Sequence record: PQ850614.1
Source: Escherichia phage LorandFenyves_Bas91
Direction: 5' to 3' (one strand)
Length of the DNA stretch: 64,000 nucleotides
Part shown: positions 57,512 to 63,931 of the stretch, piece by piece
Layout of the letters: each line of letters opens with the position of its first letter
Position numbering within the stretch: the stretch's first letter is position 1
The notes under the pieces: model-generated
Told to the model about the DNA's origin: nothing
The model's database searches: none
Seen by the model: only the letters and a program-made list of their open reading frames with translations
Made by a program: the position numbers and the translations under genes

Positions 57512-58336
57512 AATATTCACCTTTCAATTGTAAGGGCGCTATTGCCCCGCTCTCTATGAGCTTGTTTAAGTCACTATTAACTTATCTCTAACCACTCACT
57601 TTTTAAGTAGTTACAGGTAAGCGAGGCGGTCTTATCAGGAGTTAACCTTGCCGCCTCCTTATCCGTGATGTTTCATCTGGTATCTTTAATTAGTCGCTAT
57701 AAACGAAGCCGACCTGATAGCGATGATCAATCATCACAATAAGGCAGTGCGTCCGACTCTAATTAGTTACGTTATTGTAACCGTCGGCAATATCGTTTAC
57801 TTTGCTTTCGCTCTCGCCTATCCTTTTGTATCAACTCTCAATCGCTAGTCATCGCCCACTACGGGATACTATTGCGAAAGAGTCATTGACCGTCTAATGT
57901 TCCGACGTTTTATATCTTTCGGCAAGTTTACTACATAAACCGACTATGTACTTTCATCATAAGATGAATCTCAAGCCGTTCACATCGTAAACGTTCACAC
58001 TAAACCTTATTGTTAAATAGCAATTTGCCACTTTTTAACCACTCCCCGCCGCTCTCAATTGAGCGTTAATTCGTCGGGATTGCCTACCCTGATTAACTTC
58101 TTTCACCGTAGCACCGTTTTAGCGATGACCGCCGCTACCCTTAACCGTGGGCGATTAGCTTAAGTCTTTGCGTGTACTCGATGAATCCGTTTTATCAGTG
58201 GTGACGTTTCCAGTAAGGGAATGTAAGATTGTTTTCTCTGATAGTTTAGAGAATCTTACACCGTTTTATCTGGTATGTTATCTGATGGTTATTATCATCT
58301 AACATATTCAACCGATATAGGAGAATGTTTAAATTA

Positions 58337-58347
58337 TTAAAGAGCGG
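58337..58347. repeat. TTAAAGAGCGG 11-mer, copy 1
   Basis: Same 11-mer at 58568-58578 and 58987-58997. The variant TTAAAGAGCTGG is at 58879-58890. Confidence 0.6.
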
Positions 58348-58433
58348 TAAATCTGTCAGTGTGCTTTCTCACACTACGCAACTGTTAGCCGTTGTTACGC
58401 TTTCCTTAAGCGGTGATTTGCTTAAGTGTGCTC

Positions 58434-58462
58434 ATTATGAATCATGTTGTTTTCGCTGTCAA
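58434..58462 (-). promoter_or_regulatory. strong sigma70-type promoter (early)
   Basis: Minus strand TTGACA-N17-CATAAT followed by GAGCA. Near-identical core to 58920-58948. Confidence 0.65.
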
Positions 58463-58567
58463 CCACTTTTTTAATCTTTTTCGTCGTTCCCGCTATTGGG
58501 AGGATATATCAATCAGCTTTATTTGATTGAAGACTAAGCGGTGATGCTTATCTTATGATTCATATTG

Positions 58568-58578
58568 TTAAAGAGCGG
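58568..58578. repeat. TTAAAGAGCGG 11-mer, copy 2
   Basis: Exact repeat. Confidence 0.6.
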
Positions 58579-58591
58579 TTACTACATTTAC

Positions 58592-58619
58592 AGCTTAACA
58601 CATCGTGTTAGCTTGTCAA
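58592..58619 (-). promoter_or_regulatory. sigma70-type promoter candidate
   Basis: Minus strand TTGACA-N16-TAAGCT, with TG two nt upstream of the -10. Confidence 0.4.
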
Positions 58620-58878
58620 CTCTTTTTATCATCTTCTTTTAATTCCTTTCCCTTGTCTCGCGTGAATCTATGCGAAAGGGCAAGATGATAAGTCTGATTT
58701 GTCTTTTAGGAATCTAGTGCGCTTTCAAGCATTGACCATTTGAAAGTATCGAACAAATGAGGCTTATTTTGTTGCTCATCGTCCGCCTGTTCACGTATGA
58801 ATCAGGAATCAATTCTAGTGGTCAACTAAGCGCCTTATAGTAATGACGTTCCCGCCACCTGTAAGACAAATCATATTT

Positions 58879-58890
58879 TTAAAGAGCTGG
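58879..58890. repeat. TTAAAGAGCTGG variant of the 11-mer, copy 3
   Basis: One-nt insertion variant. Confidence 0.5.
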
Positions 58891-58919
58891 ATGTTTCACG
58901 TCATCGCTGACTTATGCTC

Positions 58920-58948
58920 ATTATGTATCAGGCTTTTTCTAGTGTCAA
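58920..58948 (-). promoter_or_regulatory. strong sigma70-type promoter (early)
   Basis: Minus strand TTGACA-N17-CATAAT followed by GAGCA. Confidence 0.65.
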
Positions 58949-58986
58949 TACTCTTTTTCAAGTATTTTCACTTTCTAGCCTGATTT

Positions 58987-58997
58987 TTAAAGAGCGG
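58987..58997. repeat. TTAAAGAGCGG 11-mer, copy 4
   Basis: Exact repeat, about 40 nt upstream (minus sense) of the 58943 -35 box. Confidence 0.6.
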
Positions 58998-61431: not shown

Positions 61432-61475
61432 TTGATATTCCTTCTGGTTGATGAAAACTACAAACTACACTCGCA

Positions 61476-61503
61476 ACTATATATTAAAGGAAAAGGCTGT
61501 CAA
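61476..61503 (-). promoter_or_regulatory. strong sigma70-type promoter (leftmost early promoter in transcription order)
   Basis: Minus strand TTGACA-N16-TATAGT, 45 nt before ATG 61431. Confidence 0.65.
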
Positions 61504-61646
61504 CCATTTATTTTCTAACTTTCTTGCATCCTACTGAAAACTAAAGGAATTTAATTTACTAAACTTTCTATACTCAGGGTATCAGCTTACTAGCTATTGT
61601 TACTTTATAACACCAATTCTACGGGCAGCAGACCAACAGACCAGGA

Positions 61647-61683
61647 CACGGGGAGCATACAACCGCAGGACAGACCACGGGGA
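61647..61683. repeat. two CACGGGGA repeats (iteron-like)
   Basis: ACGGGGA at 61648-61654 and 61677-61683, with the same orientation as the 62037-62070 copies. Confidence 0.6.
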
Positions 61684-62035
61684 AATATAGCAAGATAGTG
61701 CGGTAATAATATACCACTTAAATAATTGTATAACTCAAACATCAAAGACGTTCGTACTTCGTACTCACAAAGGCACGCTGAAAAAGAAAGTAATAAAAGA
61801 AACAATTAAAAGAAATACAATCATCCACTTAATTAATACATATATCATTATTGCACTCATAATCATTACTATTGAAACTATTATCAACGTAACTATGGGG
61901 AGCTGAACGGTAACAATACGGTATTATTAGACCTGTTATTATCACGCCTTAACAGACCGTTATCAGAGTATAGCCTTTCTCTCACTCTTTAAAGGGGAAC
62001 TAAATAAACGGGTAGCTAATGTATTGGGTAGTATA

Positions 62036-62070
62036 CACGGGGAAATAATTACGGGGAGTAGGCACGGGGA
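62036..62070. repeat. three (C/T)ACGGGGA repeats spaced 13-14 nt (iteron-like)
   Basis: ACGGGGA at 62037, 62051 and 62064. An AT-rich ~300-bp tract separates them from the 61648/61677 pair. Confidence 0.6.
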
Positions 62071-62223
62071 ACGCTGGAACGTTGAAAGGGAAGGTAAAGG
62101 CATTGCCAATAACCCTTTTTTAAATGAGGACTCCCCCTTTTTAGGAAACGCGCGGCGAGCGGCTAGCCCCATTAGGTCAAATCAGAATTTTAAACTCTTA
62201 TATATAAGGTTGAAAGAGAACTT

Positions 62224-62388
62224 ATGTGGAAAATTAAGTTAATCATTAAGCAATTCAAATGTGATCATGAGTACTATCGGATACGCAAAGCTTACGGGGA
62301 TGAAAGAGTTCACACCCTTTATAAGTCCACTTGGAGATGTAGTAAATGTGGTAAGCTTAAACACAGCACATGGATGGATAGGCCTTAA
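62224..62388 (+). CDS. small Zn-ribbon protein (54 aa), + strand member of the H-x-(W/Y)...CxxCG family
   Basis: Below the track threshold. MWKIKLIIKQFKCDHEYY...CSKCG parallels the 51755/51929 proteins. Preferred over the out-of-frame track ORF 62261..62479. Confidence 0.45.
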   Translation: MWKIKLIIKQFKCDHEYYRIRKAYGDERVHTLYKSTWRCSKCGKLKHSTWMDRP

Positions 62389-62397
62389 CGTGACATG

Positions 62398-62497
62398 GCC
62401 TTTATGGGGGTGCCTTTATGACAAGCCCTTTACTTCAGCGTACACGGGTTGTTGGTATGGGGTGGCCTTTACGGGTTAGATATGCCTAGCCCTTTAT
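62398..62497. repeat. five GCC(C)TTTA(T/C) repeats
   Basis: Copies at 62398, 62412, 62425, 62465 and 62489. Several are followed by (T/C)GGGG/GGGTT, echoing the ACGGGGA motif. Confidence 0.5.
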
Positions 62498-62521
62498 ACT
62501 CTTATTCAGAGGAGAAGAATT

Positions 62522-62776
62522 ATGAATTTAGTATTAGACTTTCTATCAGAGATGGTGCCTCGGTTTAGAACGGAGACATACGCTTTCGTGGTCAATAGTG
62601 ACTCTGAAGAAGGGATGGAAGCTACATGCTTAGGTCGTCTTGTTGATTTAGATGATGAAACAGATTTCGATATTACAATTGATGTAAGTAGTTTTGGTTG
62701 GCTCTTCTTCAGAGCATTCCGCACTTACAGAAAAGAAACATACAAAGATTACAGCAAGGGAGATACAAATGAATAA
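62522..62776 (+). CDS. acidic hypothetical protein (84 aa)
   Basis: GAGGAGAAG RBS. Confidence 0.6.
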   Translation: MNLVLDFLSEMVPRFRTETYAFVVNSDSEEGMEATCLGRLVDLDDETDFDITIDVSSFGWLFFRAFRTYRKETYKDYSKGDTNE

Positions 62777-63401
62777 TTTAATCCAAGCGATGGACCTTAA
62801 CGAGTACAATTCACAGCTATGTCGTTCTGGTTGTAGCTTACAGCATTTAGAAACTATGGGAAATGTTTCAGGATTGGCTGTACAAGATTTATATAGTGGA
62901 AGTATTCTTAAACCAACTATTACGGAGAAGAAAGATATGATGAGTTTAGTAGAACAATACCGTGGACTTCAAGTCGGTACTATTGGTGATAAATATGAGA
63001 ACTACTACAAAGATCGCTCAAAAGTACTTGAAGAAGTTGCACGGGCTAAGCCTTCTACTCTGGAGGTAGTTGAATATGAATCTACTAAACATGATCACCT
63101 CCCTGATTATGCTCGCGCAATGATTGAGATGATTGAAGAAGCTGAATATGAAATGCTCCATGATTACATTACCTCCAAAGATGAATGGCATCGTGATGTT
63201 CGAATCGAAGAAGATGGTACAGAAACAATTACGTGGATTCACAAGAGTGAGTTAGTAGACGACGCACTGCGAGACTACGAAAAATTTTTGGTCGACGGCT
63301 CTATTCTTTTAGAGGAAGAGAAGGGTGCAGAACTTCCGTGGGAAGGTGAGACGATTGCTCTAGGTAAGATGTTTAACCTGTCCGTTGGTGATTGTAAGTA
63401 A
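62769..63401 (+). CDS. hypothetical protein (210 aa)
   Basis: Start moved to ATG 62769 (AAGGGAGA RBS), which overlaps the upstream stop. Confidence 0.6.
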   Translation: MNNLIQAMDLNEYNSQLCRSGCSLQHLETMGNVSGLAVQDLYSGSILKPTITEKKDMMSLVEQYRGLQVGTIGDKYENYYKDRSKVLEEVARAKPSTLEVVEYESTKHDHLPDYARAMIEMIEEAEYEMLHDYITSKDEWHRDVRIEEDGTETITWIHKSELVDDALRDYEKFLVDGSILLEEEKGAELPWEGETIALGKMFNLSVGDCK

Positions 63402-63406
63402 TATTT

Positions 63407-63427
63407 GCCTCCGTTGGGAGGCTTTTT
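63407..63427 (+). terminator. intrinsic terminator
   Basis: GCCTCC-gttg-GGAGGC followed by TTTTT. Confidence 0.65.
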
Positions 63428-63457
63428 GTGTTGTTGATAATGTAGAAGGAGTATAAA

Positions 63458-63931
63458 ATGTTTGGAGAAAACGGAGAACTCACGCCTGCACAGGTAGCTG
63501 AGATTACAGGAAGATTACCCGGAGTAACGGAAGAACTCGAAAGCCGTGGTATGAACCCAAGCAATGGGAAGTTTCAAAAGGGAAATAAATTCGGACGACC
63601 CAGAGGTAGTAGAGGTAAACTGACACAATTAATGTTGGACCGTGTTGCTGCAAGTCATTTGTCTCCTGATGAAGTGTTAATTCAAATTTACGAAGATCCT
63701 AATATTCCACCTGATCTTAGATTCAAGGCTGCATCAAAAGTTGCAGATCTGGTATATCCTAAGGCGGCCTCTGTTGAAGTTAAGATTGAGGAAGAGAATG
63801 TAATCAACGAAGAATCATTGAATGCACAAATCAAGGACTTCTTGACTGGAGCACTTGGTATCGACGTTATGCCTCCAGAAGAAGACAACTCTGAGGACGC
63901 TGAAAAGGGGGAGGAAGCGGACGAGAGTTAA
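63458..63931 (+). CDS. hypothetical protein; small terminase subunit is a positional guess only
   Basis: AAGGAG RBS. Basic HTH-like N-terminal region (TPAQVAEITGRLPG...KFGRPRGSRGK) and acidic C-terminus. It opens the rightward block. Confidence 0.55.
   Translation: MFGENGELTPAQVAEITGRLPGVTEELESRGMNPSNGKFQKGNKFGRPRGSRGKLTQLMLDRVAASHLSPDEVLIQIYEDPNIPPDLRFKAASKVADLVYPKAASVEVKIEEENVINEESLNAQIKDFLTGALGIDVMPPEEDNSEDAEKGEEADES

Follow-up and report, generated by a model that had tools for sequence, protein, structure and literature searches.

A conserved array of 14-nt repeats beside the left genome end of Kuravirus coliphages, a candidate docking site for a phage protein

Arrays of short sites used by small terminases are best known from phage lambda, whose cosB carries the sites R1-R3 bound by gpNu1, and from the pac-site repeats of P1, SPP1 and P22; the classical pac sites of P22 and SPP1 lie inside genes. 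Phage T7 has a further array of short repeats, reportedly the "SRL" of Dunn and Studier (1983): in the T7 record, eight same-strand copies of CTAAAG stand at 176-338 with a 13-nt period, after the 160-bp terminal repeat, three more stand inside that repeat, and a matching array lies at the opposite end of T7's genome. In the current work, we describe an array of 14-nt repeats in Escherichia phage LorandFenyves_Bas91 (PQ850614.1), located at 62375..62496 of a stretch of 64,000 nucleotides (nt) that is called the window below. The array is genuine and strongly conserved, and its general type, a cis-acting repeat array beside a phage genome end, is a familiar one. It most likely forms a docking site for a phage protein, our best guess being the small terminase (TerS), and we assign a probability of roughly 0.4 to the proposal, made from sequence comparison, that it serves as a recognition array for terminase or for genome-end processing.

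The preliminary description of this DNA had reported five copies of GCC(C)TTTAY between the 54-aa open reading frame (ORF) at 62224..62388 (gene 1) and the gene starting at 62522 (gene 2), and all five are found in that interval on the plus strand, with GCCTTTAY at 62398, 62412 and 62465 and GCCCTTTAY at 62425 and 62489. The high density that it had remarked upon for so small an interval was borne out by the statistics: both strands of the 64-kb window hold 11 such motifs, five of them within 100 bp, the Poisson probability of at least five in 133 bp is 7.8e-14 at the background rate, and Markov simulations (150 whole-window, 3000 local) never placed more than two in a 133-bp span. By aligning the flanks of every CCTT(T/A)A in the interval, in the window and in 17 relatives, we derived a longer conserved unit, the bipartite 14-mer TGR-N4-S-CCTTWA. 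Among its 77 distinct copies in these 18 genomes, T is found at position -8 in 73 and G at position -7 in 72; A or G occupies position -6 and G or C position -1, with free variation at the four intervening bases. The exact 14-mer occurs six times in the window against 1.24 expected, a count that none of 100 shuffles reached, and all six copies fall within 62095-62471, five in the array on the plus strand and one, inverted, in the terminal repeat of the genome. The array and its parts are as follows.

62095..62108, minus strand: inverted single 14-mer, TGGCAATGCCTTTA, in the terminal repeat
62375..62496, plus strand: the array as a whole, overlapping the end of gene 1 and stopping before gene 2
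62375..62388, plus strand: unit 0, GGCCTTAA / TGGATAGGCCTTAA, covering the gene 1 stop codon and missed by the preliminary description
62391..62432, plus strand: units 1-3, TGACATGGCCTTTA, TGGGGGTGCCTTTA and TGACAAGCCCTTTA, the first three copies noted earlier
62434..62457, plus strand: conserved spacer TTCAGCGTACACGGGTTGTTGGTA between the two sub-arrays
62458..62471, plus strand: unit 4, TGGGGTGGCCTTTA, the fourth copy noted earlier
62483..62496, plus strand: unit 5, TGCCTAGCCCTTTA, the fifth copy noted earlier, inexact because its R position is C
62473..62500, plus strand: weak terminator-like hairpin GGGTTAG/CTAGCCC with a T-rich tail, to which unit 4 gives its tail and unit 5 its head

Units 1-3 start at 62391, 62405 and 62419 and thus abut one another with an exact 14-nt period, and the unit-to-unit spacing over the whole array (16, 14, 14, 39 and 25 nt) is without helical phasing. 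The units lie 211-333 bp from where the terminal repeat ends (62164), and the TerS-like gene begins about 960 bp downstream of them. Tandem Repeats Finder did not call it, because the units are too diverged.

The loci around the genome end were scanned for the 14-mer in 27 related genomes (110.6 kb), and the motif was found to be conserved, locked in one orientation and confined to a single interval. All 145 plus-strand copies lie between the end element of the terminal repeat and the TerS start codon, with none elsewhere, and the same interval contains one minus-strand copy. Twelve minus-strand copies represent the fixed inverted copy in the terminal repeat, which is present in all 12 Kuravirus-type genomes and in no Suseptimavirus-type genome. 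Each of the 18 Kuravirus and Suseptimavirus genomes carries 4-7 plus-strand units in the interval and none elsewhere in the fetched loci, and copy number among the relatives ranges from four to eight. When ten collinear relatives were aligned, the differences between them proved to be whole units of 14-16 nt gained or lost. The ORF 62261..62479, which overlaps the array and had been raised as a possible conserved, translated gene, is open for anything from 11 to 72 codons in 18 genomes and is not conserved. Since neither of these checks went against it, the motif not being scrambled in relatives and the overlapping frame not being kept, the reading of the interval as an array stands.

Intermediate lineages (L025-L039) were reached through homologues of the 157-aa TerS-like protein in metagenomic assemblies, from which the same region was fetched. 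Seven genomes with a TerS 69-82% identical (L025-L030 and L036) are without homologues of gene 1 and gene 2 and carry the canonical 14-mer, on the plus strand only, between the repeat-end element (GAGGACTCCCCCTTTT...CT|AG) and the TerS start. A tie of the array to the 54-aa or the 84-aa protein (the products of genes 1 and 2) is thereby ruled out, as it persists in seven genomes that have neither. In L027 and L028 the array is non-coding and stands directly upstream of a homologue of the 210-aa gene that follows gene 2 in the window (gene 3). In L025, L026, L029, L030 and L036, some copies fall within the 5' coding sequence of gene 3 in differing frames (read as A-F-I, P-L or P-F), and others fall in the gap that separates gene 3 from TerS, 68-110 nt ahead of the TerS start. 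The array is kept across lineages whose neighbouring proteins are only 25-55% identical. In L031 and L037-L039 (TerS 62-67% identical), gene 3 and the canonical motif are both missing, and a same-strand row of two to four related units with the core CC(C/A)TTCA(Y) is found 100-240 nt upstream of TerS (CCTGCCCTTCAC, GCATTCATA, CCTGCCATTCATA, CATGCCATTTATA and CCTCCCCTTCAC). A tie of the array to gene 3, which looks perfect for the canonical motif, is weakened by these diverged units upstream of TerS in genomes lacking gene 3. No CCTTWA array was found in the Grimontviridae relatives GAP52, A24, SeKF_80 and Privateer or in L033. As a separate observation, the lineage without gene 3 has a conserved GC-rich segment of about 60-65 nt, GCGTAAGCGACACGCCGA.GACCCCGCGTAGCTGGGGGCGGAGGTGGAACCGGCGCG, between its diverged array and the TerS start (L031 3900-3965; L037, L038 and L039 at about 2900-2970), which may be a structured element.

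The setting of the array is that of a left genome end. The 2.6 kb around it matches about 120 phage records, headed by Kuravirus (phiEco32/SU10-like) coliphages of the Gordonclarkvirinae, and by these matches the window is a Kuravirus genome shown as a circular permutation of the linear molecule. Position 1 of the phiEco32 record aligns to window position 61972, window position 62165 is position 194 in at least eight phage records, and the records of phages Paul and 4E8 have a direct terminal repeat annotated at this place; blunt-ended direct terminal repeats of 193 bp have been described for phiEco32, SU10, YF01 and about 30 relatives (PMC4281155, PMC9965538). From the record alignments, the annotations and the published repeats, the terminal repeat is placed at 61972..62164 with the physical left end at 61972, so that the DNA to the right of 62164 is the left end of virion DNA. 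The features of this end, besides the array, are the following.

61972..62164, no strand given: direct terminal repeat of 193 bp, collapsed to a single copy in the permuted window
62113..62143, plus strand: C-run/T-run repeats CCCTTTTTTA ... TGAGGACTCCCCCTTTTTA, the most conserved part of the terminal repeat
62224..62388, plus strand: gene 1, 54-aa CxH...CxxC protein (Zn-ribbon ORF), PHROG 7696, its stop codon within unit 0
62522..62776, plus strand: gene 2, 84 aa, PHROG 12698
62769..63401, plus strand: gene 3, 210 aa, labelled "ABC transporter" in databases
63407..63422, plus strand: intrinsic terminator-like hairpin that closes the left-end early operon
63438..63444, plus strand: TAATGTA, a late promoter element of the gp36 type ahead of TerS (SU10 table S2; consensus in PMC12276001)
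63458..63931, plus strand: 157-aa small-terminase candidate (TerS-like), with the large terminase next

C-run/T-run repeats were described for SU10 (PMC4281155), and a conserved region has been noted at about positions 130-170 of the terminal repeat (PMC9965538); the GAGGACTCCCCCTTTT element of the repeat is retained even in distant lineages (L025-L039). Genes 1-3 are classed as early in SU10 (PMC4281155), and domain searches returned no informative domain for their products. The "ABC transporter" label of gene 3, which comes from RefSeq and the PHROG name, looks unfounded on the searches made, because the protein has neither a Pfam ABC domain nor a relative in the PDB; its structure model was unusable (pLDDT 43). 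A conserved promoter-like sequence, TTTAAACTCTTATATATAAGG, stands immediately to the right of the terminal repeat. Within the repeat, a rightward TAATGTA (the core of the gp36 middle/late promoter) is present at 62017-62023, but it is probably not a conserved promoter, since phiEco32 and an NJ01-like genome have TAATGAA there. On the right-end side, the minus strand at 61476-61503 carries a near-consensus, inward-pointing sigma-70 promoter (TTGACA-16-TATAGT, 11/12 matches) about 470 bp left of the terminal repeat, which corresponds to the SU10 early promoter upstream of CDS125.

Small ORF cassettes stand between the two sub-arrays in phiEco32 and ES17 and after the last unit in NJ01-type phages, each carrying a copy of the TTATTCAGAGGA ribosome-binding region. 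In phiEco32 (L003), the leader of the inserted cassette has TTAACTTTA at 463-471, which we take to be the same sequence as "epsilon", the enhancer of translation in the leader of T7 gene 10. Six genomes from both genera, L009 (SGF2), L017 (TH38), L016, L015, L005 (4E8) and L010 (ECBP2), have a strongly hydrophobic ORF of 25-26 aa (e.g., MEIIFWLVIVFCLFICFSIARCIKYD in SGF2) between gene 1 and the array, whose ATG overlaps the gene 1 stop codon (TAATG). In addition, a palindromic mini-insert of 18-20 bp, GTAGTCATCAAAGATGAC, is seen in the variable spacer of differing units in ES17 (L008), SGF2 (L009), PE006 (L015) and Bas92 (L012), and each time it regenerates a TGAC...CCTTTA unit.

Several properties bear on what the array does. 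A constrained site, a single orientation, turnover by whole units, confinement between repeat and TerS, tolerance of coding sequence and a shift between clades together fit a DNA-level array for terminase or genome-end recognition better than they fit a gene-specific operator. Across the 77 distinct copies, it is the TG at -8/-7 and CCTTWA that are kept at the level of the site, with 4-5 spacer bases varying, and, as in cosB and pac sites, several copies lie near the genome end and the terminase genes, further copies in five lineages standing at the 68-110 nt upstream of TerS given above. Genomes with a TerS at least 69% identical all have the canonical motif, the four with a TerS 62-67% identical have CC(C/A)TTCA and L032 has none, a pattern drawn from few genomes and from loci that may be linked. 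The preliminary description had proposed a protein-binding array and offered three functions for it: a repressor or activator operator, a packaging recognition site, or the extended half of an iteron field. A binding-site array is indeed likelier than a gene or chance, given that the sites are dense, conserved and locked in orientation, and of the three functions packaging recognition fits best: the array is next to the 193-bp repeat, the TerS-like gene follows downstream, and the consensus shifts in the lineage where TerS is more divergent. Protein binding, TerS as the binder and packaging as the outcome are what we infer from this pattern.

As regards the candidate binder, the two best PDB matches of the 157-aa family profile are small terminases, those of NV1 (7joq, E=0.002) and PaP3 (6w7t, E=0.055), matches that are weak and cover the oligomerisation core only; the YF01 paper also assigned this protein as the small terminase (PMC9965538). 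The basic segment near the N terminus of TerS occurs in two forms, GSRG(K/Q)LTQ and G(K/R)RN(K/V)LTQ. The array would then act as a multi-site platform of double-stranded DNA on which an oligomeric phage protein, most probably the TerS of 63458..63931, could dock, and would flag the concatemer junction on its left side for the start of packaging or the processing of the end, with a mode of action like that of the lambda cosB R-sites or of pac-site repeats. The inward-pointing promoter at 61503..61476, after which further early promoters come, suggests that the right end enters the cell first. T7 has the same promoter arrangement at its first-entering end. If the left end is accordingly the one packaged first, the precedent of lambda cosB would lead one to expect the recognition site just inside the left cut. 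In its most specific form, which we hold tentatively and at less than even odds, the proposal is that the array may be the sequence-specific packaging signal of a short-direct-repeat phage, in which 14-nt sites would be wrapped by a ring-shaped TerS, co-evolve with it and tolerate coding sequence.

A number of points weigh against recognition by terminase. The assignment of TerS depends on weak profile E-values and a poor model, the AlphaFold model having a pLDDT of 66 and the Foldseek search returning only E>1. L032, which has both the repeat-end element and a homologous TerS, showed no array. Between terminal repeat and first unit there are 76 to about 260 nt, depending on the genome, and in phiEco32 and ES17 small ORF cassettes push the parts of the array up to about 180 bp apart, so that strict array geometry is not needed; the 14-nt period also places successive sites on different faces of the helix. 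All copies stand on the sense strand of one putative transcription unit, and a role as an operator or in RNA would explain the strand lock equally well. The presence of the canonical array coincides with that of gene 3, and units 4 and 5 form the weak terminator-like hairpin at 62473-62500. Finally, we know of no function for the T7 short repeats, and for this reason the comparison with T7 gives no mechanism.

Among the alternatives, the one that survives best is an operator or roadblock array through which a DNA-binding regulator of the phage or the host would control genes 2-3, possibly with autoregulation by the gene 3 product; we consider it unlikely and yet, like the RNA-leader role taken up below, a serious rival. 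Its position suits such a role, as the array is always downstream of the promoter-like TTTAAACTCTTATATATAAGG and upstream of the terminator that precedes TerS, in an operon that is early in SU10 (PMC4281155). The canonical motif co-occurs with gene 3 in every sampled genome and brackets it in L025, L026, L029, L030 and L036, but this association is confounded, because array and gene 3 are physically interleaved, and the lineage without gene 3 still has a diverged array upstream of TerS. The sites are non-palindromic, lie up to 400 nt from the promoter and occur within coding sequence and 3' of gene 3, and no DNA-binding domain was found in the products of genes 1, 2 and 3. Moreover, this phage group already has gp79, which shuts off early transcription by sigma-70 (PMC12276001). 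A row of promoters, as distinct from operators, was considered and rejected: no sigma-70-like promoter (hexamers like TTGACA-17-TATAAT) was called in 62165-62521, and the array contains no gp36 element (AATGTA, centred at -11.5, or TAATGTA), AATGTG variants being only sporadic in relatives.

The strict sense-strand lock (145 to 1) and the location of all copies within one putative transcription unit are also what would be expected of an RNA leader element, in which the repeats would bind a multimeric RNA-binding protein and control a hairpin or downstream translation, in the manner of TRAP attenuation. The irregular spacing of 14-39 nt suits single-stranded recognition, gene 2 and each inserted cassette start 25-35 nt after a copy, units 4 and 5 supply the arms and U-tract of the hairpin at 62473-62500, and in L036 a unit abuts a terminator-like hairpin. 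The hairpin at 62473-62500 is nevertheless weak (seven pairs, including one G-U, and an interrupted T-tract). Every Kuravirus-type relative could form its GGG...CCC pairs, one U-A/U-G change included, but it is absent from Suseptimavirus-type genomes and was not called in L026 and L029. The region does not fold significantly better than shuffled sequence (z = -0.31), Rfam gave no match (E<=1), no candidate RNA-binding protein was found, and the inverted copy in the terminal repeat is left unexplained by an RNA-level role, which we judge unlikely.

A different DNA role at the genome end, whether in replication initiation or priming, as a pause during DNA entry, in an end nucleoprotein complex or as an extension of an ACGGGGA "iteron field", is improbable. 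What speaks for it is that a same-strand ACGGGK cluster at 61648-62476 overlaps the array. In the window as a whole, ACGGGK is not enriched (21 copies against 20.6 expected), but nine of the 21 copies fall within these 830 bp, all on the plus strand, on both sides of the terminal repeat and inside it. CACGGGGA occurs four times. The preliminary description had stated that three motif copies are directly followed by G-runs resembling the upstream ACGGGGA; this holds for two of them (62398, TTTATGGGGG; 62465, TTTACGGGTT) and fails for the third, and the resemblance itself is partial, as ACGGGK is clustered but the two in-array copies read ACATGGG or are absent in Suseptimavirus-type relatives and are thus not conserved there. 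CACGGGG repeats are abundant in the equivalent region of a distant relative, with 5-8 copies of CACGGGG/ACGGGGA in non-coding DNA at 2456-3082 of L033 (TerS 49% identical), so the ACGGGK family is more widely conserved than the CCTTWA array, from whose units it differs. In related Grimontviridae, Cronobacter phages among them, the long equivalent non-coding region upstream of the TerS-like gene contains four perfect DnaA boxes (TTATCCACA) in a span of about 190 bp (Cronobacter phage GAP52, L020, 443-632; phage A24, L021, 41-230), which by sequence suggests a DnaA-dependent origin near the genome end in Grimontviridae. T7, too, carries short repeats inward of its terminal repeat. Replication iterons are recognised by helically phased repeats of 17-22 bp, an AT-rich region, DnaA boxes and an initiator gene, a combination that this locus does not show. 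The 14-nt length and phasing of the unit are unlike those of classical iterons, no AT-rich stretch lies in or beside the array, there is no CCTTWA array on the right-end side of the repeat, and the sole nearby match to a DnaA box (TTTTCCACA, minus strand, 62225-62233), which falls on the start of gene 1 some 140 bp upstream of the array, is probably due to chance. The proposal of an extended iteron field is therefore poorly supported, as the motif is not ACGGGGA, its 14-nt period is non-helical, adjacent DnaA boxes and an AT-rich partner are missing and relatives have coding copies.

It is also very doubtful that the array has no dedicated function and is a slippage-prone remnant or a junction for cassette shuffling, possibly the decayed coding sequence of a longer ancestral gene 3. 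Copy number does vary by whole units, ORF cassettes and the 18-bp palindromic insert are found between and inside units, and the DNA homologous to the array is coding in L026, L029 and L036. Against this, about 150 copies retain TG and CCTTWA with variable spacers, the array is maintained where the neighbouring proteins are only distantly similar, the remainder of the genome lacks the motif, and a tandem 14-nt register is not what would be expected of decayed coding sequence. There is next to no chance that the interval is protein-coding, as in the 29-aa coding sequence (CDS) annotated in the CHD5UKE1 RefSeq record (PQC55_gp002; window 62390..62479, in the same frame as ORF 62261..62479): although the frame is open in both the window and CHD5UKE1, it has nine different ends in 18 genomes and in SU10 meets a stop 20 nt after gene 1, the five motif copies lie in three different frames, unit indels of 14/16 nt shift the frame, and PHROG gave no match, so that this CDS, which lies wholly within the array and whose frame is not conserved in relatives, is probably spurious.

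We did not find the array described in the Kuravirus literature covered, which included PMC4281155 and PMC9965538 and left the primary phiEco32 papers (PMC2587145, PMC3275717) outside. Kuraviruses are common therapeutic candidates against E. coli, and a 14-nt site with a pattern of presence, absence and variants gives a testable handle on concatemer-junction recognition and on control of the left-end operon. Should the array prove to be a packaging signal, it would give the phiEco32/SU10 group its first defined TerS recognition code, could allow packaging-specific vectors or transducing plasmids for these phages and would, by analogy, suggest a function and a model for T7-type short repeats. 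Should it prove to be regulatory, it would be a new cis element of the early left-end operon.

TRAP attenuators consist of 11 G/UAG repeats in the Bacillus trp leader, and they resemble the array in having many short sense-strand leader repeats that overlap a terminator hairpin; unlike TRAP sites, the unit here is much longer, no ring-shaped RNA-binding protein was found, and the hairpin, itself weak, is not retained from one genus to the other. The BoxA consensus is GYTCTTTAANA (PMC5725501), and the core GCCTTTA looks like BoxA (GCTCTTTA) minus one base, on the sense strand and downstream of a promoter-like element. The array was nonetheless rejected as BoxA, as no unit matches the consensus and nor does any other part of 62165-62521; also unlike BoxA, its units stand in tandem and inside genes. 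Four perfect BoxA matches are present elsewhere, on the minus strand at 58335-58995 (GCTCTTTAATA, GCTCTTTAACA and, twice, GCTCTTTAAAA), against 0.66 expected and 0 of 100 shuffles, which argues that the phage uses the canonical BoxA sequence where elements of this type occur. All four follow an early promoter-like site at a distance of about 15-100 nt, three of these sites being of the TTGACA/sigma-70 type and one of the TAATGTA gp36 type, on the sense strand of leftward early genes. One of them reads CGCTCTTTAACAAT, the rrn-type sequence, and TTAAAGAGC (the reverse complement) occurs three times in the equivalent region of L025-L028. This suggests, from sequence, Nus-factor antitermination of Kuravirus early transcription; the combination of phiEco32 and boxA was not found in the literature searched.

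The T7 short repeats have the closest described anatomy: a short motif repeated on one strand, inward of a short direct terminal repeat, with a similar period (13 nt in T7 and 14 nt here). Packaging of concatemers with short direct repeats is assumed for both phages (PMC9965538). The motifs are unlike each other (CTAAAG in T7, TGR-N4-S-CCTTWA here), and the T7 array abuts its repeat, whereas gene 1 lies between repeat and array in the present phage. Unlike in T7, the right-end side (61432-61971) contains no 14-mer and one loose SCCTTWAY match (61946), and it carries other repeats, CACGGGGA and CAGACC. The latter form a run of CAGACC/GACCA repeats at 61629-61683 (CAGACCAACAGACCAGGACACGGGGA ... 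CAGGACAGACCACGGGGA), of which GACCAGACC recurs in the short-repeat region of T7 (L019 286-330).

Among the small terminases, that of PaP3 binds a 20-bp cos DNA, GCCGGCCCCTTTCCGCGTTA, specifically (PMC7672466). The family of the TerS candidate here matches the small terminases of PaP3 and NV1, and the PaP3 cos site shares a C-run/T-run core with CCCCTTTA, a likeness of five or six bases that may be due to chance; the left end of PaP3 showed no comparable repeat array on inspection. In function, the nearest models would be lambda cosB and the repeated pac sites of P1, SPP1 and P22. Those phages have cohesive ends or headful cuts, where the present one makes direct terminal repeats of exactly 193 bp, and the array stands 211-333 bp from the nearest cut at a variable distance, with no bend site of the IHF type identified. 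As in cosB and pac sites, however, several copies of a short site lie near the cut and beside or inside the terminase genes, and a coding location is tolerated. The site and the specificity of TerS change together between lambda and phage 21, and a possible parallel is the change of the core here from CCTTWA to CC(C/A)TTCA in the clade whose TerS is 62-67% identical.

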